Below, in pieces: positions 34,775 to 54,200 of a stretch of 64,000 nucleotides of DNA. Below the pieces are notes generated by a model, which had not been told where the DNA came from, searched no databases, and was given only the letters and a program-made list of their open reading frames with translations. The stretch comes from Vulcanimicrobiota bacterium. GTDB lineage: Bacteria > Vulcanimicrobiota > Vulcanimicrobiia > Vulcanimicrobiales > Vulcanimicrobiaceae. Numbering within the stretch: the first letter of the stretch is position 1; the number at the start of each line of letters is the position of its first letter. The stretch spans positions 9,600 through 73,599 of the forward strand of contig CAVZQG010000013.1 of the NCBI GenBank assembly GCA_963777365.1, in the 5' to 3' direction. The translations under genes and the position numbers were made by a program.

Positions 34775-36003
34775 TTACGGGGAAGCTGTAAAATCCGGGA
34801 CCTTCAGGGTACCCGCTCCGGCTGCCGACCGCAGCGCGTCGACCTTGTCCAAGCGCTCCCAGGGCAGGTCGAGATCCGGACGGCCGAAATGCCCGTACGC
34901 AGCCGTCTGCCGGTAGATCGGACGGCGAAGATCCAAATTATGGATGATCGCAGCCGGCCGCAGATCGAACGTCTTTTTGACGATCTCCGCTATCTGCTCT
35001 TCGGAAAGCCGTCCGGTTCCGAACGTTTCGACCAGGACGCTTACTGGGCGCGCAACGCCGATCGCATACGCGACTTGTACTTCGCAGCGGTCGGCCAGTC
35101 CGGCCGCAACGATGTTCTTTGCAACGTGTCGCGCAGCGTATGCAGCCGAGCGGTCTACCTTCGTTGGATCCTTTCCGGAGAACGCGCCGCCACCGTGACG
35201 CGCCATGCCGCCGTACGTATCCGCGATGATCTTGCGGCCGGTCAGTCCCGCATCCCCTTGGGTCCGCCGATCACAAAGCGTCCGGTCGGATTTACGTAGA
35301 TCCGCGTATTGGCATCACGCAGCGATGCTGGAATGACGTGATTGATCACCTTCTCGGTGATCTCCGTGCGGATCGTTTCGAGCGGAATATCGGGATCGTG
35401 CTGCGTCGAGATAACGACCGCGTCGACGCGCACGGGCTTGTCGCCTTCGTACTCAACGGTGACCTGGGACTTTCCGTCCGGACGCAGGTATGGGATATCG
35501 CCGTTCTTACGCAACGCCGAGAGCGTACGGGTGAGATTGTGCGCAAGCACGATCGGCAGCGGCATCAGCTCGTCGGTTTCGCGGCAGGCGTACCCGAACA
35601 TCATGCCCTGATCGCCCGCACCGATGCGCTCAAATAGATCGTCGGGGTGTTCGCCGGCTTTTGCCTCGAGCGACTTATCGACTCCCATTGCAATGTCGGG
35701 CGACTGCTCGTCGATGGAAACGCTCACACCGCACGTGTCATAGTCAAAACCAACGGCCGACTTCGTGTAGCCGATATCTTTGATGACCTCACGCACAATA
35801 CGCGGGATATCGATGTAGGTCGTCGTCGTGATCTCACCGGCAATGTGGATCTGACCGGTTATCGCAAACGTTTCGCATGCGACGCGCCCGTTTGGGTCGT
35901 CTTGGAGAATCGCGTCGAGAACGGCATCCGAAATCTGGTCGGCGACCTTGTCGGGATGACCCTCGGTCACCGATTCGCTGGTAAAGAGCCGGCGGTATGC
36001 CAT
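34775..36003 (-). CDS. metK: S-adenosylmethionine synthetase, 1 frameshift (~35245)
   Basis: [32 protein letters not shown] and ...[12 protein letters not shown], then a break, then [11 protein letters not shown]...[19 protein letters not shown]. The junction is consistent with CCCC read as CCC. Confidence 0.9.
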
Positions 36004-40501: not shown

Positions 40502-40850
40502 GACTTTCTCCCCAGATTACTTCCGCGGGGCGGGGTCGCGATTATTAGACGTGGGTGTAAGAGCACCCCTTTGACCTTCTGCCCCATTGAACACCGCGGC
40601 CCCATACGCCCGGGATGCGACTATCGGCCTATGGCTTTGCTCTTTGTTGACCAGGCAAGCATACCAGCGGCCTCTCGCCTCTCCGGCGGCCGGACGGTAA
40701 GATGACTAACAGTCGGTCTATCGGCGGACCTTAGTTCGATATGCGCATAAGGGCTTTTGTCCCTGTTGAAGCAGCCGTGCTGCCCTGGTTCATGAATGCT
40801 AACCCTCGTTACGATGAGCGTGTGATCTCGTAGCGAGGAATAGGGTTACA

Positions 40851-41875
40851 ATGCGCATTTCCCGGCTTTCTTCAGGCATAGCCATTACCATCGCACTCTC
40901 CATCTTGACGGCTTGCGGAGGAGGCGGAGGCGGCTCGACCCCAAACGTCCCGAATCCGACAAACCCGCCGGGTGGTGCCACCAGGACCGACTGCGACGCC
41001 GGCTCCGGTACAGACGAGTTCGTCTTCACCGGCGACCCCAAAGCCGACACCGACGCCGATAGCCACGCTCGCGCCGACGCCGACTCCGAGACCGACCCTT
41101 GCGCCGACACCCACGCCCACACCCATGCCGACGGCAACACCCACGCCGAGCGGCGGGGGCAACAGCAGTAAGTCGGTGGGCGTCGGAAACGGTCAGATCA
41201 ACGGTCAGAACCCGGCCTTTACGGGCGGCATTGGAACGGTTACCGGAACGGGCGACTATCCGGCCGGAGGCCACGGCCCGCTGGACTCGACCTTCGGCGC
41301 CGCGTCGATACCTTGTCTGGAAACCATGTACGGCGGGGCCCCGACCGGCCCGGGTATACACGTCCACGCGTTTCTCGGGATCATGTTCAACGGCAAACAG
41401 ATGGCGCTCCCAGCCGGGATTGGAATCGCCAATCCGGCCGCTCCCGGGAACCTTCGCCGGAATCAACAATTGGATTGACTTCGCAGTCGGCCCGGGCTGC
41501 TTCTATCAGATGCATGTGCACGATTTCAGCGGGCTGATCCACATTGAAGGTTTCACCGCGCCCCCCGGCGGCTTCAGGGGCACGCTATACACACTCGGAG
41601 ATTTTCTGGGGCTCTGGGGCGTTCCGGTCGATCAATTAAACGGCGTCGTCGGTCCGTTCATGGGTAATAGGCCGCTCACGATCTACACGTCGGGTCCGGT
41701 CGCGCGAGGCGGCCCCGGTACAGGCGGTTTCCTGGGTTCAAGCACCTACACGCTGTTCACGGGCGACATGAATTCGATCCCGCTCTACTCGCACGAGGCG
41801 ATCTGGATTCTCATCGGTACCGGAAACCCAACCGGCAACAAACTTCCGAACGTCGATTTCTTCACGGAGTACTAG
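40851..41875 (+). CDS. Lipoprotein with Pro/Thr-rich linker and a C-terminal HxH...HxHD domain of unknown function, 2 frameshifts (~40975, ~41450)
   Basis: Lipobox ALSILTACGGGGGG. A PT-rich linker lies in the frame of ORF 40972..41478. Domain: GGHGPLDS...IPC...GIHVHAFLGIMFNGKQMALPAGIG...CFYQMHVHDFSGLIHIEG...YTLGDFLGLWG. It is a paralogue of 49817..50578. Confidence 0.55.
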
Positions 41876-41904: not shown

Positions 41905-41935
41905 TGAGGGGCGGGCATCCGCCCCTCATTTCTTG
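41905..41935 (+). terminator. Rho-independent terminator
   Basis: TGAGGGGCGG-gcat-CCGCCCCTCA 10-bp stem followed by TTTCTTG. Confidence 0.6.
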
Positions 41936-42487
41936 AAAAACCCCACTGTGAAACGGCCGCTTCCGCTCTGGCTTGCCGCCGTCGTTCCGTCCACGCTGGC
42001 GGGACACGGCTTCGCCTATGCGCTTGCCGGCCAAAGCGCCGCCGATGGACGACATGCGTGGCTGCTTCCCATGCTCGAATGTTCACTCGCACTGCTGATC
42101 GCCGTTTCGCTGATCCGGACGCACGAATCGCTCTTGAAGGCGCGCGTGCTCATGCATACGCCCGCGGAACGATCGGTTGCCGCGCTTTGGTGTCGACTCG
42201 CCTTCTCGCAAATCGCACTGTTCAGCGTCATCGAACAGCTCGAAGGTTCGCATATCAGCCTGACCGGAATCCTGGTTCAACTTTGCCTGGCTGCCGTTAT
42301 CGCCTGCGTTCTCGCGGCTTTTGCGCGGTTGATGATCGAATGCGCGCGCGGCACGCGCTTGGCCGGCATATACTTGCTGCGTTTGCGGCAAGGCGTCAAT
42401 TCGTTCGCTTCACGGCGCCCGGCGCCAATCGCGTATGCACTGGCCGTCCGCGCCGGAACCTCACGTTTCCAGCGCCCGCCTCCATAA
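41933..42487 (+). CDS. Four-TM membrane protein of unknown function (paralogue of 45732..46298)
   Basis: TM segments LWLAAVVPSTLAGHGFAYAL, WLLPMLECSLALLIAVSLI, LWCRLAFSQIALFSVIEQL and ILVQLCLAAVIACVLAAF, with conserved His residues. The start could also be the GTG at 41948. Confidence 0.5.
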   Translation: MKNPTVKRPLPLWLAAVVPSTLAGHGFAYALAGQSAADGRHAWLLPMLECSLALLIAVSLIRTHESLLKARVLMHTPAERSVAALWCRLAFSQIALFSVIEQLEGSHISLTGILVQLCLAAVIACVLAAFARLMIECARGTRLAGIYLLRLRQGVNSFASRRPAPIAYALAVRAGTSRFQRPPP

Positions 42488-42541
42488 GGACGACGCCTCG
42501 ATCCATTCTTCGACCGCGCTTTCCCGAATCGGAGGTTCCCC

Positions 42542-44306
42542 TTGCGTTTTCTCGTTGCAAGCGTTCGCGCATTGTGCGCGGCCGCGTTCGTGATACTAGC
42601 GATGCCGGCAGCAGGCTTTGGCTATCCCCGTCTTTGCCAACGGTCAGGGCATCTCGTGCGAGGTCTGCCACACGACCTTCCCCGGCATGACGCGATACGG
42701 CATGTCGGTGATGATGACGAATTTTCAGATCCTCAACCGGCATCTTCAGGACGGCGCTCTTCCCATCGCCGCGCGCATATACATTACCTCGCTCTTTGCC
42801 AACAAGGATCATCCCGGCTCGACGCAGGTCGATGATCTCTCGCTGCTGGGCGGCGGTTTTCTCGGAAAGAATTTCACCTGGTACGCCGAGCAGCACTTCA
42901 TCGATAGTGGCGTAATCGGCGATACGGAGCAGCTGTGGCTCTCGTGGAACGGTTTGCTGCACGGGACCAACTCGCTTCAAGTCGGGAAGTTCCATACGCC
43001 CTTCCCGTTCATGCCTGCGCACGCTTGGACTATCAGCGATTATCTGCTCGCCGATCAAACCACCGGCCAGAATGACTTCAACGAGGAAGATGCGCGCTGG
43101 GGCGTTGCCTTCAACGGCATGTCGAACGAGTTCATGTACAATTTTTCGTGGGTTACCGGGAGCGGGCCCACCGGCGATGCGCTCGACTACAATCCGACGA
43201 TAAATCCGCAAGCGCTCGATTTAAACGTCTCCTATGGCGGGATGATGATTCCGTGGTCGGTCGGAGTGGTCGGAATGCTCGGACATTCGCCCGTGCACGA
43301 CACGCAAACGAACGACTTCCTTTTTACCAACGCCTTCTCTCGCGAAGGCCTGTATTTGGCCTATCAGGACCCGGCCTGGCATTTTCAGACGATGTACTTT
43401 CACGGGTTCGACAATCAGCCGGACGTCGGCGAATTCAACGTGCCGCTGAACGGATTCTTTTTCGAAGTCGAACGCGATCTCGGATGGCGCAACCACATCG
43501 CCGTGCGGTACGACGTCGCTTCGAGCGATACGCTGAACCGGCAAGTCATCATCGATCTCTCGCACAATGTGTTGCCGAACCTTGCCCTCATCGGCGAGGC
43601 CGCGGGATATCCGCTGGCCCGCCCGGCATTCGCATTTCGCATTCAATATGCCGGACCTTATGAAACCGGGAACCGCTACTTGTCCAACTTACACGTTGTC
43701 TCGGCGAATAATCTCGGTGCGGTTGAACCCGCGAAGACCGTTGCCGTGGCGAACGTGGCTGCCTCGCCATCGCCGCAACCTGCCGCCGGTGATGCCAACG
43801 CGGGCGCCAAACTCGTTCAGGCCAACGGCTGCGCCGGCTGTCACGGTGCGAATCTCAAGGGCGGCGGCGTCGGGCCGGCGCTCTACGGCATCGAACACAA
43901 GCTCGCAAGCGCACAGATCGCCGATTTCATCAAAAATCCGCGGGCACCGATGCCGAACTTCGGTTTCAGCGATGCGCAAATCAGCGACATCATCGCCTAT
44001 CTGAGCGGTCTTGACGGCGGTGCGAATAGCCAGGCTCCGGTCGTAACGTTCGATCCGGCGACGCCGACCGACATCGCGACGATCACCGTGCGCTTCCCCG
44101 GAACTCCGCCCAAGGACGTGAGCGTTCTTCCGATCATGCAAATGGGCAAGAGCACCATGCAGACGCGTCTCGTACACCTCACGCCGTCTTCGAGCGACCC
44201 GAACACATTCACGGGAAAGGTCGTTTTCTCGATGGGCGGTCCCTGGACGGTCAAGGTTCAGTACGATGGAAACACCCTCGACGTGCCGCTGAACGTAGGG
44301 CAGTAG
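42542..44306 (+). CDS. Fusion protein: signal peptide + N-terminal CxxCH haem motif + about 350-aa beta-barrel-like region + class I cytochrome c domain + YtkA/FixH-like Ig-type domain (Cyc2-like fused cytochrome-porin architecture); 1 frame break in the signal peptide (~42615)
   Basis: SD GGAGG lies 6 nt before the TTG at 42542. Signal MRFLVASVRALCAAAFVILAMPAAG. CEVCH is at 42657-42671. The middle part is aromatic-rich with an alternating pattern and ends in an OMP-like last strand, RPAFAFRIQYAGPY. After the linker SPSPQPAAGD come CAGCH at 43830-43844 with a downstream PRAPMPNFG, and then ...MGGPWTVKVQYDGNTLDVPLNV. The barrel assignment is inferred, not computed. Confidence 0.6.
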
Positions 44307-45735
44307 TGCGCCGATCGCGATTCCTGCACAGCGGCTTTGGCGCGATGATTGCCGCGGCGTTGCCGCCGATGCCGGCATTCGCGCTTGGAAACGACGTGCT
44401 GGACTATACGCTGACGGCCACGCCTCTGCGTTTCTCACCGGTCGCCGGCGTTGAACTGGCGGGACTCGCATTCAACGGCACGATACCGGGCCCGGTGCTG
44501 CGCGTGCGTCACGGTCAACGTTTGCGCGCGAAGTTCGTGAATCAAAGCGGGGAACCGGCGACGATCCATTGGCACGGCATGATTCTGCCCAACAACATGG
44601 ACGGCGTCGAAGGCGTTACGCAAAAGGCGGTCCCGAGCGGGCGGGTCGTTCTTGTACGAGTACACGCCGGATCCGCCGGGCACGCGCTGGTATCACGATC
44701 ACATTAGCGACGGCTTTGCGCGGGGACTCTTCGGTCTGATCATCGTGGAAGATCCCAAAGACGAACCCGCGGATGCGGAGTTCGCGTTGGTGTTTCACGA
44801 CGTCCCCAAACTTGCGAGCATTCAGAGCTGCCATGGACGGCACGAGTCCCGCCCCAATGGTCGATCCGATCGGCTCACCTGAAATGACGGAGATGAAGCC
44901 GGACGACAAGATGGGCGACGAAGTTTCGTATCTCGCCCATTGCATCAACGGGCGTTCGTATCCCGATACGCAAAAGCTCGCGGTGAAGGTCGGCCAGCGC
45001 GTGCGGCTGCGCATTCTCAATGCCAATCCCACGCAGACGCGATACGTACGCCTAGCGGGACATCGACTAACCGTCACGCACAGCGATGGGAATCCATTAC
45101 CTCGCCCAATTGAGGTGGACGCACTGCGAATCGGCGTCGGCGAGCGGTACGACGCGTGGTTCGAGGTAAGCAAACCCGGCTCGTGGCTGCTGCAAGGCCT
45201 CGCGAGCGATCCGCTCGCTTATCAGCAGGCAGCGGTCGTCTTTACACCCGGACTGGAAGCCGCCTCGCCGATGAGCAGTCCGCAAACGCTCGACGGCGTT
45301 GATTTCTTTACGTATCAAAAAGCAGGCGCTGCCGGCAATGCGGCTATGTCACAAACGCGGCCTACGCGCTCATTTGATTTTAAGATTGCCGGTGGAGAAT
45401 GGGGCAGCAACAAATGGACGCTCAACGGCAAAACCTATCCCAATACGCAGAAACTTTACGTCGATCGAAACGATCTCGTTGAGGTGCACTTCAAGAACAC
45501 CACGGATATGGACCACCCGATGCACCTTCATGGCCACGTTCTGCAGCTCACCGAAGTAGACGGCGAGGGCTTGGCGGCTCCGCTTCTCAAGGACACGACC
45601 CTGGTCCGCGCCTACACCGGAACGGTCACCTGGCGTTTTCGCGCCGACTCGCCTGCCGGACGTTGGCTGTTGCACTGCCACAACGAGATACATATGATGG
45701 ACGGGATGATGACCGAGGTCGTATACCGCTCGTGA
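44306..45735 (+). CDS. Multicopper oxidase with twin-arginine signal, 2 frameshifts (~44640, ~44825)
   Basis: Tat motif MRRSRFLHSG. Copper ligand motifs HWHG, WYHDH, HPMHLHGH and HCHNEIHMMDGMM. The GTG start overlaps the upstream TAG by 1 nt. Confidence 0.85.
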
Positions 45736-46298
45736 ACCTAAAGGCGCGCGCCTTTGTTGCCGCAACGCTATTGGGATTGCCCGTAGCGCTGCTGGCGCAC
45801 GCGCTGGTTTTCGGCGGTCAACATGCGGCCGGCGGGGCGTCTCAACAGTTTAGTCGTCGGTTCGGCCTCGTTCGCGCTACTGCTGATCATCGCGCTGCAT
45901 TCACAGGAACTCGTTCAGGGCAGCGTACTGGCGGCGCGCTTGCGCGCGCAGCGGCCGGGCTTCGCGTCTCTGACGGTCTCCGGCAGCGTCTTGGTTCGCG
46001 ATCATCGAACTCAGCGAACGCAGCCACGCCATTCACATTGCTTGCGGTCGCAGCGGCGATCGTAATCGCATGCGTCGTAGTCCGCGCTGCCGTCAGCGCG
46101 ATCGCGCGTTCAATTGCCGCGGTCGCGGTCGTCCTCTCAGCGGTCGGCCGGCATATTGCCGCGCTCGTGCGAACTCGCGTTTTCCTGCGGCACGGTGCGC
46201 CGCTTCGCTGTCTGCTCGTTCGCGCATACACGGCGGCTGTTCTCACGCCCGCCGCCCGTCCTTTCCTAAACATTTCTCGAAACTTCTCGTTCGTTTAG
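45732..46298 (+). CDS. Membrane protein, paralogue of 41933..42487, at least 2 frame breaks
   Basis: The GTG overlaps the MCO stop (GTGA). VAATLLGLPVALLAHALVFGGQHAAGG... and ...AIIELSERSH... parallel AGHGFAYAL and SVIEQLEGSH of the upstream paralogue. A hydrophobic C-terminal part lies in another frame. Confidence 0.4.
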   Translation: MNLKARAFVAATLLGLPVALLAHALVFGGQHAAGGASQQFSRRFGLVRATADHRAAFTGTRSGQRTGGALARAAAGLRVSDGLRQRLGSRSSNSANAATPFTLLAVAAAIVIACVVVRAAVSAIARSIAAVAVVLSAVGRHIAALVRTRVFLRHGAPLRCLLVRAYTAAVLTPAARPFLNISRNFSFV

Positions 46299-46308
46299 GA
46301 AAGGTTCC

Positions 46309-48723
46309 ATGTCTAAAATTGTTGCGGCATTGCTTGCCGCTTTCATACTGTTTTGCGGCGTTGCCCGCAGCCGCCGCCACCGACGGACTCGTGCGCGGCA
46401 CCATTCTGGTAAACAATAAACCTGAGGCGGGCGTGAACGTCGCGCTGACCGGCGAGGGATCGCTGCTCACGACCAAAACCGACGCGCCGGCAATTACGTC
46501 TTCTCCACAAGTCCCGTTCGGCGACTACATGCTCTCCGCGTCGTATCCGCCGGCGTACCCGAAAAGAAGCTGCCGGTTACCGTCGCATCCGATCAGGTCC
46601 TGACCGTGAACTTCGCGCTCGGCGAGACTGAAAACGATTGCGAATCTCAGCTCGTACTGCGCACGGCGGCGCATCGGGCACACCCGTTCGCCGTCAACGT
46701 GCTGGGGCGGCAGCAAATCTCCGCGCTTGCCGGTGAACAACAGCCTGAATCAGCTCGTCACGACCGTACCGGGTATCGTGCGTTTCTCGTACAACGAGCC
46801 GGTCGCCCATGGTTTCCACGGCGTCACGTACGAAATCGACGGCGCGCCGATGCCGCTGGCAACCAGTTCGAACTTCGCCGAGATCATGGATCCGAAGAAC
46901 ATCGATTCGCTCGAAATCTTCACCGGCGCCATGCCGGCAGAGTACGGCGGCAGCCGGCAAGGCGCCGTCATCAATATCCAGTCGAGCCGTGCGTAGCGAT
47001 CTCACCGTTCCCTATCAAGGGTACGTCAGTTTGGGTGCGGGAAATTACGGCCAAGCAGTGGCGAGCTTCAACAACGAAGTCAAGACCGGCAAGACCGAAG
47101 TATTCTTCACCGCCAATACGCAGCACGGCGATCGCGGCCTCGACGCTCCGACCTACACGCAAATGCACGACAGCGCCTCGCGAGTCGGATCGAATTTCTG
47201 CGCACGATAACGAATTTCAGCAATCGCGAATCGCTCGCGTTTGACTTCTCCAATCAACTCGCGCAGTTCCAGATTCCGATCAACACCAACCCGAACGACG
47301 CGGCGGACCCAACCTTCGCCGTACCCGGTACCGACGACGTCCAGCGCGAGTACGATCGCCTCGCGAGTTTGAATTTCACGCTGACTTCGAAGGACGGGAA
47401 CGGCGTTTTCCAGATCATTCCCTGGGTTCGCTCGACGCGCATTGCGTACGACGGCGATTTGGAAAAGGACGTGCTTGGCTTGACCAATCTGGGCCCCGAC
47501 TCGAACGACCCGAGCCTGTTCGACTATCAGTCAGCCATCGGATTGAAGCAGGATCGAAAGGCCGATTACACCGGCATTCGGCTCTCGCAATTTCGCGCGA
47601 CCAAGCATCACGCGTTCAAGGTCGGCCTCGACGCAAGCCGCGAGATCTTCACCGGTGCCGAGACGTTCGCGTGCTACGATCCGTCATGCAACACCGTTGT
47701 CAACAGCTTCCCCTTCCGCCGCCCACGAACCTCACGTTTGTCGGCTCGAACCAGGATCAGGCCGGACGCAGATAGGTGCGTACGTTGAGGACAAATGGAC
47801 GCCGACGCAGCAGTTGTCGTTCAACTACGGTTTGCGGTACGATCATTCCACGGGTTACACCAGCGGCAATCAGATAAGTCCTCGAATCGGCGTCAACTAC
47901 GCGGCCGGACGACAAGAACGTGCGTTCACGTGTATTATGGACGGTTTTATGCCGCGCCGCAGCTCGAGGATGTTCGCGCGGACTGCGTCGTGCTTCAGGG
48001 TTGCCCGAGCACGCCGGTCTACGATCTGAAACCCGAAACCGATTCGTATTTTGAGATGGGCTTGGCGCACACGTTCTCGCCGACGCTTCGCGGCTACGTG
48101 AATGCGTGGCAGCGCAACGCCAGCAACGTTCTGGACACGACGCAACTGCTGAATACGCCGCTCTTTGCCGTCTTCAATAACTCGATCGGGCGCGCCGACG
48201 GCGTAGAATTGCGTCTGGAAGGGAACGTGACGCCGCGCGACTCCTGGTTCCTTTCGGGTTCGGTGGGTGTGTCGCAAGCCGCGGGCATCTCCGGTTCGAC
48301 GTTCCTATTCCCGCCCGGCTCGTCGGGCGGTACGACCAATGAACTCATCTCGCAACTCCAGCCGGAAGATCACGATCAAACTGTTGCAGCTCAACGCGCG
48401 CGTTCACGCACCGCTGGGGCACGAACCAGGCCTTTTACACGCAGCCTGCAAGGCGATGTACGGAACCGGCTATCCGGTCGCGTTCGAGGGCTTCGTCAAT
48501 GGGGCACCGGTCGCGTTCGAGCGGCCGTTTACCGACGCATTTGCTCGCGAATTGGTCGATCGGGAGAAACGCGGGGCGCAACGGCGATCGTTCGCTGGGC
48601 TTCGATCTGAATGTCCAGAACCTGCTCAACCATCAGTACATCATCAAGATCGCCAACGGGTTCAACACGACGCAAATCGCATCCGGCCGAAACATTCTGC
48701 TTCGTGTGACCGCTCCGTTCTAG
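46309..48723 (+). pseudogene. TonB-dependent-receptor-like outer-membrane protein with carboxypeptidase-regulatory-like N-domain; frame broken about 8 or more times
   Basis: Signal MSKIVAALLAAFILFCGVA. GLVRGTILVNNKPEAGVNVALTGEGSLLTTKTDA.... Plug region ...VPGIVRFSYNEPVAHGFHGVTYEIDGAPM...IDSLEIFTGAMPAEYGGSRQGAVINIQS. Barrel pieces lie in many frames, with a terminal ...GRNILLRVTAPF*. Confidence 0.65.
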
Positions 48724-48731
48724 ACGCTTGC

Positions 48732-48775
48732 TCCCATCCGGCGGCCCGGGCAGGGCGCCCAGCCGCCGGATGGGA
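48732..48775. other. Long intergenic stem-loop (14-bp perfect stem) without a T-tract
   Basis: TCCCATCCGGCGGC ... GCCGCCGGATGGGA with a 16-nt GC-rich loop that can add GGGC/GCCC pairs. It lies between the receptor-like gene and hldD. Confidence 0.6.
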
Positions 48776-48789
48776 ACCTAGCGCGCTGG

Positions 48790-49809
48790 ATGCATGATTT
48801 AACTCGTGGTCACGTCGTCGTTACCGGCGGCGCCGGCCTCATCGGCAGCGCTCTGGTCTGGGCGCTCAACCTGCGCGGCATCGACGATATCTACGTCGTC
48901 GACCGGCTCGATACGAGCGAGAAATGGAAGAACCTGGTCGCGCTTCGCTACCGCGACTACATCGACGCGGACGAATTCGAGCGGCGACTGCTGGAACGTC
49001 CATCGTTGTTTGCCGGGATACACACCGTGCTGCATATGGGCGCATGCTCCTCGACCACCGAGACGGATGCAGCCTACTTGATGCGAAACAACTACGAGTA
49101 CACCAAGCACGTTGCACACTGGGCCGCGGAGCAGGGCATTCGTTTCGTCTATGCCTCCTCGGCTGCGACCTACGGCGCGCTCGAACACGATCTGCGCGAC
49201 GATTCGGATATCGATGCGCTGCGTCCGCTCAACATGTACGCCTACTCCAAACAGCGGTTCGACGTATACGCGCGAGACCTGGGCCTGTTGGATCGCATAA
49301 CCGGCTTGAAGTATTTTAACGTTTTCGGACCCAACGAACACCACAAGGGCGAGATGCGCAGTTTGGTCGACAAGGCGTTCTACCAAATTCGCGAGAGCGG
49401 CAGTATCCGGCTGTTCAAGAGCCACCGCGCCGACTATCGCGACGGCGAACAGCAGCGCGATTTTCTCTACGTCAAGGATGCGGCCGCGATCACGCTTCAC
49501 CTCGCCGAGCATCAAGCAACGGGCATTTATAACGTCGGATCGGGGGTCGCCCACACCTGGCTGGATCTCGTGCGTCCGATCTTTCGCGCGATGGACGTTC
49601 CCGAGCGGATAGAGTTCATCGACATGCCGCTCACGCTGCGCGATAAATATCAGTATCACACCTGCGCGAACATCGAACGGCTGCGTGCGAGCGGATACGA
49701 TCGTCCGGTTACGCCGCTTCCCGAAGCGGTCGACGACTATGTTCGCAGCTACCTCATTCCCGGCCGGCGGCTCGATCCGCAGGCCGCAGCGCCCGCAGGA
49801 GTCAAGTGA
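48790..49809 (+). CDS. hldD: ADP-L-glycero-D-manno-heptose 6-epimerase
   Basis: VVVTGGAGLIGSALVWALN..., HMGACSSTTE, FVYASSAATYG, YAYSK and YFNVFGPNEHHKG are colinear with enterobacterial HldD/RfaD. Intact. Confidence 0.8.
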   Translation: MHDLTRGHVVVTGGAGLIGSALVWALNLRGIDDIYVVDRLDTSEKWKNLVALRYRDYIDADEFERRLLERPSLFAGIHTVLHMGACSSTTETDAAYLMRNNYEYTKHVAHWAAEQGIRFVYASSAATYGALEHDLRDDSDIDALRPLNMYAYSKQRFDVYARDLGLLDRITGLKYFNVFGPNEHHKGEMRSLVDKAFYQIRESGSIRLFKSHRADYRDGEQQRDFLYVKDAAAITLHLAEHQATGIYNVGSGVAHTWLDLVRPIFRAMDVPERIEFIDMPLTLRDKYQYHTCANIERLRASGYDRPVTPLPEAVDDYVRSYLIPGRRLDPQAAAPAGVK

Positions 49810-49816
49810 TCGCCCG

Positions 49817-50578
49817 ATGAGCCAATCTCGCGCCGACCGCCGTCGAACCAGTCGCGGAGGGGCGATGCCACCGCGCAAACGCGATCCCATGGTGCCGATC
49901 TACATCGCGTTTGCGGTACTCATCGCGCTGATTTTTCTCGGCTTCGGCATCGCGAATATGGTCACCAAACACTCACGTGACCAGGCCTCGGCTTTCGATT
50001 TGAGTACACCGACGCCGGGCCCGGCTCCGACATCGAAACCGATTCAAGTCAAGGATTTGCAGCCGATCGGAAAACCGACCGGTTTTCCGGTTGCCAATCT
50101 CCAAAAAGGCATTTTACCCGATACCAAAACGGGCGGACACGGCGATGCGGTTGACGGCATTCCCTGCCAAAGCATGGAAGTCGGCATCCTGCATATTCAT
50201 TCGCATCTGGCGCTTTTCAACGATGGCGTGCCCGTACAAATACCGGCGTTTATCGGCATGTCGCCGAGCCTTGGCGGCGGATGCTTATATTGGCTGCATA
50301 CGCACGGGCCCGACGGCATCATCCACGTCGAAGCCGGCGACGTCAGCGCACCGAGCGGCGGTCCGTTTACGCTGGGGATGTTCTTCGACATCTGGGGACA
50401 GCCGCTCAAACGCGACCAAATCGGTCCGTTCAAAGGTGACGTTACCGCATATGTCAACGGCGTACCGTACACCGGCGACTTGGCCGCCATTCCGCTTCGC
50501 GCTCACCAGATTATTACGCTCGAAGTAGGCAAGCCGATCGTTGCGCCGCCAAATTATAAACTACCGCCCAACGACTAG
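49817..50578 (+). CDS. Membrane-anchored secreted protein with HxH...HTHG domain (paralogue of 40851..41875)
   Basis: N-terminal TM helix VPIYIAFAVLIALIFLGFGIA. Domain: GGHGDAVDGIPC...GILHIHSHLALFNDGVPVQIPAFIG...CLYWLHTHGPDGIIHVEA...FTLGMFFDIWG. Intact. Confidence 0.6.
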   Translation: MSQSRADRRRTSRGGAMPPRKRDPMVPIYIAFAVLIALIFLGFGIANMVTKHSRDQASAFDLSTPTPGPAPTSKPIQVKDLQPIGKPTGFPVANLQKGILPDTKTGGHGDAVDGIPCQSMEVGILHIHSHLALFNDGVPVQIPAFIGMSPSLGGGCLYWLHTHGPDGIIHVEAGDVSAPSGGPFTLGMFFDIWGQPLKRDQIGPFKGDVTAYVNGVPYTGDLAAIPLRAHQIITLEVGKPIVAPPNYKLPPND

Positions 50579-50612: not shown

Positions 50613-51092
50613 ATGGCACGAGCGACGTGGAAGCCGCACGAAAAACACGGCACCTTAACTGAACGCGGCGATTTGCCCGACAGCGTATTTGCATTTCCCA
50701 AGGAGCGCGCAGAACCAATGACCGACGCCTCCCATGTTCGAAACGCGATTGCACGATTCGATCAAGTGCGCGGCGTTTCGGACGAAGAGCGCGACGTAGC
50801 GTTTGCAAATATCAAAAAAGCCGCTAAGCACTACGGCATAGATATCTCGGAAACGAGCTGGAGCGAACTCGGGCGGCGTCCGGCGACCGGCAGGCCGCGT
50901 ACGGCACGCAAAAAATCTGCAAAAAAGGCCGCACAAACCCGAGCGCGCCGCGGAACAGGTCAAAAAAAGACCGCCGCTCGCAAGCGCGGCGCGAAACGCG
51001 CGGCGGCAACTCGCAAGAAGGCCGGCGCTGCCAAGAAAACCACCCGCAAAAAAGCAACCAGCCGCAAGAGCACGCGTAAGAAACGTCGTTAA
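50613..51092 (+). CDS. Hypothetical protein: about 85-aa globular N-domain + Lys/Arg/Ala-rich basic tail
   Basis: ...FAFPKERAEPMTDASHVRNAIARFDQVRGVSDEERDVAFANIKKAAKHYGI..., then a KKSAKKAAQTRARRG...TRKKATSRKSTRKKRR tail. Confidence 0.55.
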   Translation: MARATWKPHEKHGTLTERGDLPDSVFAFPKERAEPMTDASHVRNAIARFDQVRGVSDEERDVAFANIKKAAKHYGIDISETSWSELGRRPATGRPRTARKKSAKKAAQTRARRGTGQKKTAARKRGAKRAAATRKKAGAAKKTTRKKATSRKSTRKKRR

Positions 51093-51142
51093 AGGCTCCC
51101 GGCGGCGTTATTGCCGCCGCCTCGCTTATCGCGATTGCGTTC

Positions 51143-52298
51143 ATGGGCAGCACGCTCATGACTCCGCTTTACGCGCTCTACCGGCGCGAATTCGGATTCT
51201 CTGAAATCACGCTGACGCTGGTCTACTCGATCTACGTCGTCGGGAATGTAACGGCGCTGCTGCTGTTCGGCCGCGTGTCCGATCGGATTGGCCGCAAACG
51301 TATCGGGCTTCCCGCGCTCGCACTCGCGGGGGTGAGCGCCGTTCTTTTCCTATTCGCGGCAAACACGGCATGGCTTTTCGTCGCACGGACCCTTAGCGGC
51401 TTCGCCGTGGGGATCGCCTCGGGAACCGGAACCGCTTGGCTCGCCGAACTCTACGGCAGCGAAAAACGTTCGCTTGCAACGCTCGCGGCGGCTTGCGCAA
51501 ACTTTGCGGGCGTTGCCGTAGGTCCGCTGCTCGCCGGGCCGCTCGCCCAGTACGCGCCGTGGCCTCTTGCGCTCTCGTTCATCGTCTATCTCGTGTTGGC
51601 GGCGATCGCGGCTTTTCTTCTCTCGCGCGCGCCCGAGACCGTCGAGCAAGAATGCACGATCCGCCAGGCCCTGACGGTACGGCCGCGGATCGGCGTGCCG
51701 CGCGAGCTATGGGGAAGTTTCATCGCTCCGGCGATAAATGTCTTCGGCACATTCGCATTGGTCGGCTTTTACGCCGCGCTGATCCCAAGCATTCTGATGC
51801 AGGACCTACATCAGAAAAATCTAGCAGTCGGCGGCGCGGTCGTCTTCGAACTGTTTGCCGTCTCGACCGTTACAATTCTGGTTACCCGCGCTATAAAAAG
51901 CGAACGCGCAATGTTCAGCGGCCTGGCACTTCTGCTGCCGGGACTTGGACTTTTAGTTCTCGCACAGGAGACTCAAATCGATGCCGCTGCTTCTTTTGGC
52001 GACCGCCATCGGCGGGACTGCAGCCGGCCTGGGCTACCGCGGAAGCTTGCAAGTCATCAACGACATCGCACCCGAAGATAAACGCGCGGAGGTCGTGTCT
52101 TCCTACTATGTCGCAGGGTTTGTCGGAAACTCACTACCGGTAATCGGTGTCGGGCTGTTAACCGCGGTCTCCAGCGCCGCGACGGCCAGCATTACATTTG
52201 CCGCCACGATTGCCGTCTTCTCGGTCGCCGCTATCGTAGTCGGCACAAAGCACCATGCACGGCAGGAGCACAATCGCCCCAGCCGCGCGGCGACATAG
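51143..52298 (+). CDS. MFS transporter, 1 frameshift (~51980); N-terminus probably incomplete
   Basis: LLFGRVSDRIGRKR motif and multiple TM segments. The frame is open back to 51092 without a start codon. The C-terminal part lies in ORF 51981..52298. Confidence 0.7.
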
Positions 52299-52615: not shown

Positions 52616-53179
52616 CTACATAGCGCTATGAATGGCGCGATCCAACTCGGCGTAAGATGTTTCGCCGCTGGTGATATAACTGATCGTTTTATTCTTGTCG
52701 ATGACGACAAGCGTCGGAAAGCCGCCTTGCAGGTAGCGGTGCGCGACGTCGAGCGAACCGTCGTAGGCGAGCGGATATTGTGCGTGCATCTGTGAGGCGA
52801 AGTTGAGCACGTCCTGCTCGCTCGCGGGCGATTGCCCATCCATTCCGGTGTTACTGCCGGAGACGCCCACGAAATCTACTTGTCCCTTATATTTGGAGTA
52901 GAGCTGATCGATCACGGCCGTTTCACGCTGGCAGTGCGGACACCACGTCGCGAACACTTCCAGGAATACCGGTTTGTTCGTCTTTGAAAGGTCGAAGTAG
53001 CCCTTGTCGGTCGCCGCGGTAAACGGCGGTGCCTTCTCTCCCCGCTGCGCCGTTGCGATCACCGGAGATTGCGTTGCGCTGCTTTTCACGCCCCCCGTAT
53101 ACGCGTAACGAACGGCTACGACAATACCGACGATAACCACCAGGACGGTAGCCCAGATCCAGATGCGACGATTGTTCAT
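52616..53179 (-). CDS. TlpA/ResA-like membrane-anchored thioredoxin-fold thiol:disulfide oxidoreductase
   Basis: N-terminal TM helix, active site FATWCPHCQRE, and a thioredoxin-fold tail ...GFPTLVVIDKN. Confidence 0.8.
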   Translation of the reverse strand: MNNRRIWIWATVLVVIVGIVVAVRYAYTGGVKSSATQSPVIATAQRGEKAPPFTAATDKGYFDLSKTNKPVFLEVFATWCPHCQRETAVIDQLYSKYKGQVDFVGVSGSNTGMDGQSPASEQDVLNFASQMHAQYPLAYDGSLDVAHRYLQGGFPTLVVIDKNKTISYITSGETSYAELDRAIHSAM

Positions 53180-53622
53180 GCGTTCCTCATACGGCCGTCG
53201 AGCGAAAACGAACCCGGTGCGCGCCACGCCACGATCAAGCAGACCGCCGCCAGCGAAAGATCGATGAAAACATGCGGCCAGTCCGCCTTTGCCTGATCCT
53301 GCGGACCGAAGCATCCACAGTTCGCCGGAATATTGCGTAAGACTGCAGAGGCAATCGCCGCCGAATAGATTGCCAGCAGCGCTCCCGCGAGAATTGCCGC
53401 ACCGCGCGTGAACAGGCCCGCAATGAGATAGAGACCCACGCCGATTTCCAAGAAGGGCAGCAACACGGCCAGAGGTGCGATAACCGTCGCGGGGATAAGG
53501 CGAAAGCCCGCGATAGCCGCGGCCAAATCGTTGAAATGCCCGACCTTTGTCGCGCCCGCCACGACGAACAGCGCACCGATCAGGACGCGAACGGCAAAAG
53601 TCACGGCTTGACCTATGGCCAT
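53176..53622 (-). CDS. MauE/DoxX-like membrane protein
   Basis: Four TM helices and a CGCFG motif (NIPANCGCFGPQ) typical of MauE-like proteins. Its stop overlaps the TlpA-like start (ATGA). Confidence 0.6.
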   Translation of the reverse strand: MAIGQAVTFAVRVLIGALFVVAGATKVGHFNDLAAAIAGFRLIPATVIAPLAVLLPFLEIGVGLYLIAGLFTRGAAILAGALLAIYSAAIASAVLRNIPANCGCFGPQDQAKADWPHVFIDLSLAAVCLIVAWRAPGSFSLDGRMRNA

Positions 53623-53640
53623 GCGCCTATGGTAGGTCTG

Positions 53641-54200
53641 ATGGGTCGATTTCTCCCCCTCGCTGCGATGGTATGCCTGGTTCTTGGCGCGTGCGCGCCG
53701 CCCGCGCCCCTGCACGGCACGGTGCTCTCGCCGCCGAAAGCCGCGCGCCGCTTCTCGCTCGTCGATCAAAACGGCACGCGATACGTGCTTGCGCAAGAGC
53801 AGAATCGATTTACAGCGCTGTATTTCGGCTTTACGCACTGCAAAGATATTTGTCCGCAAACGCTTGCAATGCTCGGCAAGGCACGCGCCCGAGCCGGGTT
53901 AACGCCCGCACAGCTTCAGATCGTTATGGTAAGCGTCGATCCGGCGCGCGATACGGCCGGCCGCGATGCGCGCGTTCTTCGCGAAGGTCGGGGTGCAAGC
54001 GGTCGGGCTACACGCGCCCGCGGCGCAGATGGTGCCGGTCTACCGCGCCTACGGTGTTGCCGTGCGAGACCAAGCTTCACGATATCGGCCACACCGACGT
54101 TATCTACATCCTCGACAAACAAGGACGCACGCGTGAAATACTCTCGCCGCAAACGCCGGTTGACGCCGTTGCGCAAGACCTGCGGGCGCTAGTAGAGTAA
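53641..54200 (+). CDS. SCO1/SenC copper chaperone, 2 frameshifts (~53960, ~54070)
   Basis: Lipoprotein-like MGRFLPLAAMVCLVLGAC. FGFTHCKDICP (CxxxCP), ...VSVDPARDT, then other frames ...VPVYRAYGV... and HDIGHTDVIYILDKQGR. Confidence 0.75.

Follow-up and report, generated by a model that had tools for sequence, protein, structure and literature searches.

Cyc2 is defined by a signal peptide, a single CxxCH haem motif and a 16-strand porin, with the motif AxPxFAR[Q/K][T/Y] located before the CxxCH and PxL four residues after it; the first of these motifs also serves as a filter for Cyc2 sequences (Keffer et al., 2021; PMC8406198). Metagenomic studies identify iron oxidisers mainly by the gene for Cyc2, and in this way Eremiobacterota have already come to be listed as putative iron oxidisers. 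In the rus operon chain of Acidithiobacillus ferrooxidans, which consists of Cyc2, Cyc1, rusticyanin and an aa3 oxidase, electrons pass from an outer-membrane haem to haem c, to blue copper and finally to O2 (PMC10654088). Another described arrangement is PcoA/PcoB (CopA/CopB), in which the gene of an outer-membrane barrel adjoins that of a periplasmic multicopper oxidase exported by twin-arginine translocation (Tat); on purely bioinformatic grounds, the PcoAB porin and oxidase have been proposed as a Fe(II)-oxidising module (He et al., 2017; PMC5566968). Here we describe a gene cluster of Eremiobacterota in which a divergent Cyc2-type cytochrome-porin with two haem motifs is encoded directly upstream of a Tat-type multicopper oxidase. 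It lies within a stretch of 64,000 nucleotides of contig CAVZQG010000013.1 (assembly GCA_963777365.1), hereafter referred to as the window, and comprises five co-directional coding regions at 41.9-48.7 kb. Judged by its sequence, the window belongs to the metagenome-assembled genome of a Baltobacteraceae-like soil bacterium of the Eremiobacterota (Vulcanimicrobiota); the best 120 homologues of the 562-residue open reading frame at 42618-44306 share 59-80% identity with it and come from Candidatus Baltobacteraceae, Vulcanimicrobiaceae, Rubrimentiphilum and Tyrphobacter.

Two of the five genes are central to the cluster. Their products and main features, given in window positions, are the following:

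42542..44306, forward strand: fused cytochrome-porin of the Cyc2 superfamily, with signal peptide, haem 1, 16-strand barrel, linker, cytochrome c domain (haem 2) and immunoglobulin-like (Ig-like) domain
42621..42716, forward strand: Cyc2-like cytochrome motif AIPVFANGQGISCEVCHTTFPGM, with the haem-1 CxxCH at 42657-42671, then the Met cluster GMTRYGMSVMM
42993..43022, forward strand: invariant HTPFPFMPAH in the long loop after strand 5, at the position of porin L3; the most conserved part of the barrel
43792..44012, forward strand: class-I cytochrome c domain (Pfam Cytochrome_CBB3, Cytochrom_C), with CAGCH at 43830-43844 and the distal-Met motif PMPNF at 43947-43961
44025..44303, forward strand: C-terminal Ig-like beta-sandwich with a weak YtkA-like Pfam match and invariant Met residues in IMQMG (44133-44147) and FSMGGPW (44226-44246)
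44306..45735, forward strand: three-domain multicopper oxidase of Tat type, with HWHG, HDH, HPMHLHG and HCHNEIHMMDGM, and a conserved Met-containing insert at ~44800-44925

The layout of the fusion protein was taken from an alignment of 33 family members. A hydrophobic leader ending in AxA opens all aligned orthologues and precedes the invariant segment IPVFANGQG-xS-CxxCH-TTFPGMTxYGMMxMM, in which the haem-1 motif, CEVCH, shows no variation among the 33 sequences. About 320 residues rich in conserved aromatics follow, then an Ala/Pro linker, the cytochrome c domain (CxGCHG … PMPxFGF; Pfam Cytochrome_CBB3, 2e-12) and a 90-residue domain that ends the protein. The AlphaFold2 model contains 16 long antiparallel strands, with a mean predicted local distance difference test score (pLDDT) of 70 and values of 70-88 in the barrel; Foldseek matched it to the 16-strand porins OmpU, OmpT, OmpF, PorB and OmpC of the PDB (E 6e-11 to 1e-9, target-normalised template-modelling scores 0.6-0.72). 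A preliminary description of this DNA had proposed an outer-membrane-type barrel with a CxxCH haem at its N-terminus, together with a cytochrome c domain in the periplasm. Two CxxCH motifs are present (42657-42671, CEVCH; 43830-43844), and Pfam, AlphaFold2 and Foldseek bear out the architecture.

Barrels with an even number of strands place both termini in the periplasm, according to established porin topology, and the haem-2 and Ig-like domains would therefore lie there too, in the same way as the periplasmic domains at the C-terminus of OmpA-like proteins. A single member of the phylum has been cultured; its envelope is of the usual Gram-negative kind, and its outer membrane bears lipopolysaccharide (LPS), so that outer-membrane barrels and TonB-dependent receptors are to be expected in this lineage. 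Modelled alone, the Ig-like domain forms a confident sandwich (pLDDT 93); a sequence search of the PDB with this domain returned nothing, and we can only conjecture that its invariant Met residues form a Cu(I) site.

The N-terminal part of the fusion protein ties it to Cyc2. In the family, the sequence A-I-P-V-F-A-N-G-Q is followed by three residues, CxxCH, three further residues and P-G-M, which is exactly the spacing of the Cyc2 consensus. A, P, F, A and P are common to both motifs, the first six positions match, and at the PxL position the Pro is kept and the Leu exchanged for Met. Moreover, a profile of the N-terminal 381 positions was searched against 1.8 billion cluster representatives (E up to 1e-3) and gave 403 matches. 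Among these are many proteins of 370-450 residues with the canonical Cyc2 motif, a barrel and a terminal Phe, which could be aligned with the profile along most of their sequence (E 1e-19 to 1e-7); examples are P0157 (AIPAFARQT-KMS-CTACH-TTY-PRL, E 1e-19), P0242, P0256 and P0168. A paralogue of 30% identity is located on contig k99_46640 ('MAG 15'), and a contig of this name is found in the tree of Cyc2-like proteins published with a study of acid mine drainage. Motif and profile search both uphold the likeness to Cyc2 noted in the preliminary description, and we class the protein as a divergent, extended member of the Cyc2 superfamily, a placement made via the proteins with the canonical motif. 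The other option considered in that description, a CopB that had acquired cytochrome domains, has to be abandoned: a Pfam scan of the fusion protein (E up to 0.01) returned cytochrome c and YtkA-like families only, with no CopB signal (PF05275), and the barrel is of Cyc2 type.

With the Cyc2 proteins of A. ferrooxidans and Mariprofundus (Cyc2PV-1; PMC8406198) the fusion protein shares the signal peptide, a CxxCH near the mature N-terminus, the porin-like barrel of 16 strands, the identically spaced A-x-P-x-F-A … CxxCH-xxx-P and, through the canonical-motif proteins, homology detectable by profile. It differs from them in having N-G-Q in place of R[QK][TY] and PGM in place of PxL, as well as an added Met cluster and a His/Met motif in the L3-like loop. 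Cyc2 is a protein of ~400-450 residues with one haem and the barrel at its C-terminus, whereas the fusion protein has ~590 residues and continues after the barrel with the linker, the second haem and the Ig-like domain.

The second central gene encodes a multicopper oxidase with the Pfam domains Cu-oxidase_3, Cu-oxidase and Cu-oxidase_2. Once its frame is corrected, all four copper motifs and the axial Met are in place, and its N-terminus resembles the Tat signal that had been ascribed to it. Orthologues have 460-475 residues and begin with MRRxxFL…AxA; in the aligned N-termini RR and F/L are conserved, several sequences carry the canonical RRxFL, and the window and others have RRxxFL. The top NCBIfam models are CopA (TIGR01480) and CueO (NF008205), and the closest solved structures are a metagenomic laccase (4f7k), Tth-MCO and CueO. 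The segment between domains 1 and 2 contains six conserved Met in ~45 residues (…APMVDP…PEM..M.PDDKMGDE), and the type 1 (T1) copper site carries the motif HMMDGMM.

The two genes are closely linked. As already described, the TAG of the fusion gene (44304-44306) shares 1 nt with the GTG of the oxidase gene (44306). In order to follow this linkage through the phylum, one genome per GTDB species was scanned, which gave ~50 orthologous loci, all of them from Eremiobacterota/Vulcanimicrobiota except one bin labelled Dormibacterota. The oxidase gene lies directly downstream of the fusion gene in 44 of the 45 loci with enough sequence, a near-constant pairing that sets the fusion protein apart from Cyc2; directly upstream, a small membrane gene is found in at least 33 of 51 loci. 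Dozens of related genomes have these genes in the same order and in an intact state, so the cluster is more than a chance arrangement, and it is conserved in relatives as far as its core is concerned.

The Met/His motifs GMTRYGMMVMM (after haem 1) and HTPFPFMPAH (in the L3-like loop) are confined to the oxidase-linked orthologue group; the corresponding segments of paralogues read PHLNSYGRYVLM and TPIFAPW, and the motifs are also missing from canonical Cyc2-like proteins. Of such paralogues, Eremiobacterota carry at least one stand-alone protein with the order cytochrome, porin, cytochrome c and ~30% identity to the fusion protein (L056-L071, for example L071:7950-9635 and L064:7860-9602; P0124). 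In several of them the periplasmic part has Met-rich repeats of the MAGMPGM type (MAGMPGMAGMPGM; SMPGMNMGSMAGMNMG). The neighbourhoods of five stand-alone paralogues consist of unrelated housekeeping genes, with no recurring partner and no oxidase, and no oxidase was seen next to the distant fusions of cytochrome, porin and cytochrome c (P0124, P0193, P0133) either, which lie on short contigs; the pairing with the oxidase is therefore specific to this orthologue group.

We tentatively propose, at a probability somewhat short of even, that the cluster encodes an electron chain from the outer membrane into the periplasm. A reduced metal ion would be oxidised at or in the pore by haem 1; the electron would move to the tethered cytochrome c domain (haem 2) and then to the blue T1 copper of the oxidase, which would reduce O2 to water in the periplasm. 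Translational coupling would link the Tat-exported oxidase to the porin gene. The upstream membrane protein, with its His and ExxE motifs, would be an inner-membrane partner, possibly binding metal at the periplasmic face, and a second membrane paralogue together with a TonB-dependent receptor would form an optional add-on. The whole module would thus be a compact metal:O2 oxidoreductase spread across outer membrane and periplasm. Its role would lie in detoxification or in the handling of metals and not in energy conservation, because O2 would be reduced in the periplasm. A wider version, in which a Cyc2-derived two-haem porin is wired throughout the phylum to a laccase-like oxidase that acts as periplasmic cytochrome c oxidase, and the two form a self-contained metal:O2 oxidoreductase, we consider doubtful.

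Transfer from haem c via T1 copper to O2 is downhill for typical potentials, and there is precedent for its first step in the cytochrome-c-fused copper nitrite reductases such as Ralstonia pickettii RpNiR, where a tethered class-I cytochrome c likewise feeds T1 copper. In RpNiR the tether lies within one polypeptide and the substrate is nitrite, whereas here the cytochrome is attached to the porin and a separate three-domain oxidase would be the acceptor. The carriers would also follow one another as in the rus chain. In contrast to that chain, porin and periplasmic haem belong to one protein here, one oxidase would provide both the blue copper and the O2-reducing centre, and there is no inner-membrane proton-pumping oxidase and no obvious energy conservation.

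As for the metal, we would put Cu(I) first within this proposal, at less than even probability, followed by Fe(II) at a slightly lower one, with Mn(II) or another substrate making up the remainder. Cu(I) is suggested by the affinity of the oxidase to CopA and CueO and its Met-containing insert, the Met/His motifs specific to the orthologue group, the invariant Met of the Ig-like domain, MxxM-rich linkers and repeats in relatives and, in one clade, a permease resembling Cu/Zn efflux proteins; a distribution independent of habitat would suit a housekeeping role. Fe(II) is suggested by analogy, its oxidation being the only demonstrated activity of Cyc2, as well as by the ExxE motif of the membrane proteins, the siderophore-type optional receptor and the origin of many genomes from acidic peat and soil.

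The remaining genes and signals of the cluster are listed here:

41905..41928, forward strand: GC-rich terminator-like hairpin for the upstream His-rich lipoprotein gene, 20 nt 5' of the first start codon of the cluster
41948..42487, forward strand: small helical membrane protein A, ~180 residues with ~4 hydrophobic segments, an invariant His in the first of them, ExxE(G)xH and C-terminal RFQRPPP
45732..46269, forward strand: small membrane protein B, paralogue of A, with the frame-corrected C-terminus RLFSRPPPVLS
46309..48723, forward strand: TonB-dependent receptor with signal peptide, CarboxypepD_reg-like domain, Plug, barrel of the 22-strand type and terminal Phe
48732..48775, forward strand: hairpin with a perfect 14-bp stem and without T-tract, between the receptor stop and the epimerase start at 48790

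The two small membrane proteins had been called paralogous, which cannot be seen by BLASTP, where they show no similarity to each other, but emerges from a profile-profile alignment of 32 upstream-type with 17 downstream-type sequences (hhalign, 99.5%, E 1.6e-22). In loci L007 and L011 a downstream-type copy occupies the upstream slot. In the joint alignment of the family, a His in the first hydrophobic segment and an E-x-x-E are invariant, the latter mostly with G/S-x-H behind it, and the C-terminus carries F-x-R-P-P-P. Hydropathy indicates three to four transmembrane segments, and by the positive-inside rule the His and Glu would face the periplasm. A homologue search found 43 clusters, all unannotated and restricted to this lineage, and neither Pfam nor NCBIfam assigned the proteins to a family.

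The last gene was correctly recognised as that of a TonB-dependent receptor: its fragments in the window match Plug (1.7e-7) and TonB_dep_Rec_b-barrel (2.6e-5), intact orthologues of ~770 residues consist of a CarboxypepD_reg-like domain, Plug and TonB-dependent barrel, and the frame-corrected product ends in …LLRVTAPF. Its best NCBIfam matches are weak and siderophore-type; up to E 0.01 the search returned siderophore, haem and generic models only, far under their cut-offs, and no match to the copper receptors OprC/NosA. Of the 28 loci that are fully covered, no more than 12 contain the receptor pair. The receptor is always preceded by a small membrane gene, and sometimes the pair lies upstream of the fusion gene (L029, L032, L053). 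Of the single five-gene unit envisaged in the preliminary description, the membrane protein, the fusion protein and the oxidase thus stand as core, while the second membrane protein and the receptor are an accessory pair that is absent or relocated in most relatives.

At the borders of these genes, the TGA of the oxidase overlaps the GTG of the second membrane gene at 45732 (GTGA), and the receptor ATG at 46309 has a Shine-Dalgarno sequence of its own, AGGAAAGG, both as reported. Two details need correction. The receptor gene begins 39 nt, and not 10, after the second membrane gene, whose corrected frame stops at 46269 instead of 46298; and for the first gene the most likely start is GTG 41948 (VKRPLPLW, in agreement with orthologues) and not TTG 41933. 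Both hairpins reported to flank the cluster exist. The upstream one has a 10-bp stem and a 4-nt loop and is followed by TTTCTT; similar hairpins occur 24-38 nt upstream of the first gene in loci L004, L005 and L019. The downstream one begins 9 nt past the receptor stop and has no T-run. A sigma-70 scan upstream of the cluster found no promoter-like site, and an Rfam scan of upstream regions for metal riboswitches gave no matches.

The surroundings of the cluster had been read as a copper/haem neighbourhood. A TlpA-like redoxin, MauE and two SCO1/SenC genes are indeed present, but they reflect phylum-wide synteny and not membership in the operon: the whole 20-kb neighbourhood is syntenic across the phylum (S-adenosylmethionine (SAM) synthetase, S-adenosylhomocysteinase (AdoHcyase), SpoVS, YmdB, epimerase, SCO), and an ADP-heptose-epimerase-like (LPS) gene separates the SCO1/SenC and TlpA/MauE genes from the cluster. 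The MauE-like reading frame (53176-53859) and the TlpA-like one (52616-53314), both on the reverse strand, overlap by ~140 nt in different frames and may be one MauE-thioredoxin fusion gene split by an assembly indel. In one clade an ArsP_1-family permease, absent from the window, follows the oxidase or the receptor after 10-12 nt (L002:16055-17167, L012:11185-12279 and similar); its top NCBIfam match, far under the cut-off, is the SO_0444 Cu/Zn efflux family, which hints that the cluster may handle copper or zinc.

Two paralogous His-rich extracytoplasmic proteins are encoded on either side, at 40851-41875 (with a lipoprotein signal) and 49889-50578 (with an N-terminal transmembrane anchor). 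They have the motifs C…HIHSH…C.YW.HTH…G.IHVE and MHVHD…IHIE, and like a 182-residue protein encoded nearby they match no Pfam or NCBIfam family. In many relatives a copy of the His-rich gene lies directly upstream of the cluster, and its product is possibly part of the same system. A conserved noncoding element of ~50 nt (window ~40529-40577; also L003:1300-1360, L028, L030, L027, L009 and others) is found by the 5' end of the divergent gene for the 182-residue protein. Its consensus is GGGGGGGTCGCGTCTATTAGACG…GAGC.CCCCTTGTGCTTTCACGAC, with the palindrome GCGTCTA-T-TAGACGC, and it has no Rfam match. Where an additional gene intervenes between the gene for the 182-residue protein and the metal cluster, the element remains beside the former; it may be an operator or promoter. 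Between the second His-rich gene and the redoxin and SCO genes, 50613-52081 encodes a DUF6582 protein and a major facilitator superfamily transporter, which are missing at that position in L001 and L002.

As deposited, four of the five cluster genes are broken by ~26 single-base indels, of which ~24 are +1 insertions according to frameshift-aware protein-to-DNA alignment. In the fusion gene, the signal peptide (from TTG 42542, behind GGAGG) is separated from the rest of the frame by a surplus base near 42611-42619; the oxidase gene has two breaks, caused by single-base insertions at ~44637-44645 and 44826. By the same alignment method, the second membrane gene has about four single-base insertions and the receptor gene as many as 19 indel events; for the latter, a tblastn comparison with intact orthologues gives at least eight frame changes; the first membrane gene is intact. 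Breaks are not limited to the cluster. The SAM synthetase gene (34790-36003, reverse strand) is split into two frames near 35254-35260, the upstream lipoprotein gene (40851-41875) has at least two frameshifts, and the indels, nearly all insertions, extend beyond homopolymers (34790-36003, 40851-41875, 42611-48520). These breaks are most likely assembly or sequencing errors, as judged from the pattern of the indels. Natural decay of bacterial genes is biased towards deletions, and the insertion bias seen here is the opposite. We also favour errors because a related contig of 89.5% DNA identity (locus L073) lacks the extra bases at the same sites, yet has indels of its own in other genes, including YmdB and AdoHcyase, because related long-read metagenome-assembled genomes (L053, L055) are likewise fragmented, and because the SAM synthetase and lipoprotein genes are affected too. 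Stop-codon reassignment and programmed frameshifting were ruled out, as the breaks are scattered +1 insertions missing from a close relative. That the cluster is in this organism a decaying array of pseudogenes with real mutations is very improbable, the least probable of the readings discussed here. The density of ~26 indels in 6.2 kb, next to unbroken epimerase, YmdB, AdoHcyase and SCO genes, and the accumulation of breaks in the accessory receptor would fit decay; the direction of the events, the state of L073, L053 and L055 and the frameshifts elsewhere in the window speak against it, as do the absence of large deletions and a normal amino-acid identity to orthologues. In practice, gene calls from this record are unreliable or shortened, with insertion errors of ~0.5-1% in places: the deposited 539-residue protein of the fusion gene starts after the haem motif and lacks both this motif and the signal peptide.

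Several points weigh against the proposed electron chain. The diagnostic R[QK][TY] of Cyc2 is replaced by N-G-Q, so that published filters would exclude the protein, and the haem-1 region is poorly modelled (pLDDT <50 for residues 23-71). The oxidase scores far under the cut-offs of its best families (183 versus 479 bits for CopA, 118 versus 525 for CueO), and Foldseek found only generic Ig folds (PD-1, filamin) for the Ig-like domain and not CopC, CusF or PCuAC. Transfer from cytochrome c to the oxidase is inferred solely from the adjacency of the genes, and oxidases of the CueO type need no protein electron donor, so that this one might act alone. Reduction of O2 in the periplasm would conserve no energy, which leaves the physiological benefit an assumption. 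The Fe(II) version, in addition, has to contend with the presence of the module in genomes from Antarctic soils that are oxic and contain little Fe(II). A rival reading, which we regard as unlikely, is a copper-homeostasis pair without an electron wire. Here a CueO/PcoA-like oxidase would act directly on periplasmic Cu(I), the barrel would be a copper-selective channel analogous to PcoB/CopB, the Ig-like domain would carry Cu(I) in the manner of PcoC/CusF, and the haems would be ancillary or sensing. The family matches of the oxidase and its Met-containing insert agree with such a pair, and so do the group-specific Met/His motifs of the fusion protein, the invariant Met of the Ig-like domain, the MAGMPGM-type repeats of relatives, the SO_0444-like permease within the operon of one clade, the SCO1/SenC and TlpA genes nearby and the habitat-independent spread through the phylum, which suits housekeeping. 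Yet two strictly conserved haems are hard to call ancillary, the barrel descends from Cyc2-type cytochrome-porins and gives no CopB signal in Pfam, and the Ig-like domain is structurally unlike known copper carriers. The oxidase remains below the CopA and CueO cut-offs, the receptor does not resemble OprC/NosA, and an unrelated epimerase gene stands between the SCO genes and the cluster. PcoA/PcoB share with the cluster the adjacent genes of an outer-membrane barrel and a Tat-type oxidase and, possibly, Met-rich features (PMC5566968); in contrast to PcoB, predicted to have 10-12 strands, the present barrel has 16 and bears haem, and the order is barrel then oxidase, the oxidase is short (~460 residues), and pcoC, pcoD and regulators are lacking.

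Alternatively, the cluster could serve oxidase-dependent iron acquisition similar to Fet3p-Ftr1p or FtrABCD, with Fe(II) entering via the cytochrome-porin, the oxidase acting as ferroxidase, and Fe(III) being passed to the ExxE protein and, where present, the receptor. A PcoA-type oxidase is known as a ferroxidase for iron acquisition in Pseudomonas aeruginosa (summarised in PMC5566968), Fe(II) is the known substrate of Cyc2, both membrane paralogues have an invariant ExxE and His predicted to face the periplasm, the optional receptor scores best with siderophore-type models, and Fe(II) persists in the acidic peat and soil from which many of the genomes come. We nevertheless consider this clearly improbable, for the small proteins (~4 transmembrane segments, one ExxE) are neither homologous to the Ftr1/EfeU permeases nor assignable to any known family, most genomes lack the receptor, no Fur box or other evidence of iron regulation was found, and Met-rich motifs are atypical of iron sites. 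Slightly less probable again is a conserved but coincidental synteny, in which the Cyc2-like protein feeds soluble carriers or the respiratory chain and the oxidase, possibly a laccase-like oxidase of Mn(II) or phenols, works independently. With the whole 20-kb neighbourhood syntenic in the phylum, adjacency alone is weak evidence, and among solved structures the one closest to the oxidase carries a laccase annotation. Clusters of a multicopper oxidase and a cytochrome c domain are, moreover, known for Mn oxidation and from the OmpB system. Judged by gene content, MofA/MofB/MofC and the Geobacter OmpB clusters resemble the present one in linking a multicopper oxidase to a haem c protein with SCO1/SenC nearby; unlike it, they have large oxidases that are surface-exposed or secreted, and a separate haem protein that is not a porin. 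Coincidence is difficult to reconcile with the overlapping stop and start codons and gaps of 40-60 nt in every relative, with a pair that holds together even if its flanks differ or the receptor pair has been relocated upstream (L029, L032, L053), and with an extra Ig-like domain and Met/His motifs in the oxidase-linked orthologue group only.

The preliminary description did not recognise the cluster as a described system, which is true in part. Cyc2-like genes have already been reported in Eremiobacterota by FeGenie-style surveys; we found no description of the two-haem architecture with Ig-like domain, of the near-obligate pairing with an oxidase, or of the His/ExxE/RPPP membrane family. A literature search for multicopper oxidases or a Cyc2-oxidase operon of Eremiobacterota brought nothing relevant, and the Vulcanimicrobium alpinus supplements mention no multicopper oxidase. 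The cluster also differs from MtoAB, PioAB and MtrAB, which combine a separate cytochrome of ~10 CxxCH with a porin of 26-28 strands, whereas here two CxxCH are both located on the polypeptide of a 16-strand porin.

If the wider, phylum-wide version of the proposal held true, it would represent a new type of extracellular electron-uptake or metal-detoxification pathway. It might even be a case of Cyc2 chemistry repurposed from Fe(II) to Cu(I), with the His/ExxE/RPPP proteins as a new family of inner-membrane partners. With only two proteins, the module would lend itself to studies of how electrons pass from a haem in the outer membrane to a copper enzyme that reduces O2 in the periplasm. Its relevance, which rests wholly on sequence inference, would extend to metal-oxidation research and to the annotation of metagenomes: if a Cyc2-derived protein works together with an oxidase, possibly on copper, the iron-oxidiser calls made for Eremiobacterota would need to be re-examined, and fused cytochrome-porins would turn out to have a wider range of chemistry than is known. 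The cluster furthermore defines an uncharacterised membrane-protein family, along with two His-rich extracytoplasmic paralogues, in a dominant but barely cultured phylum of soil bacteria.

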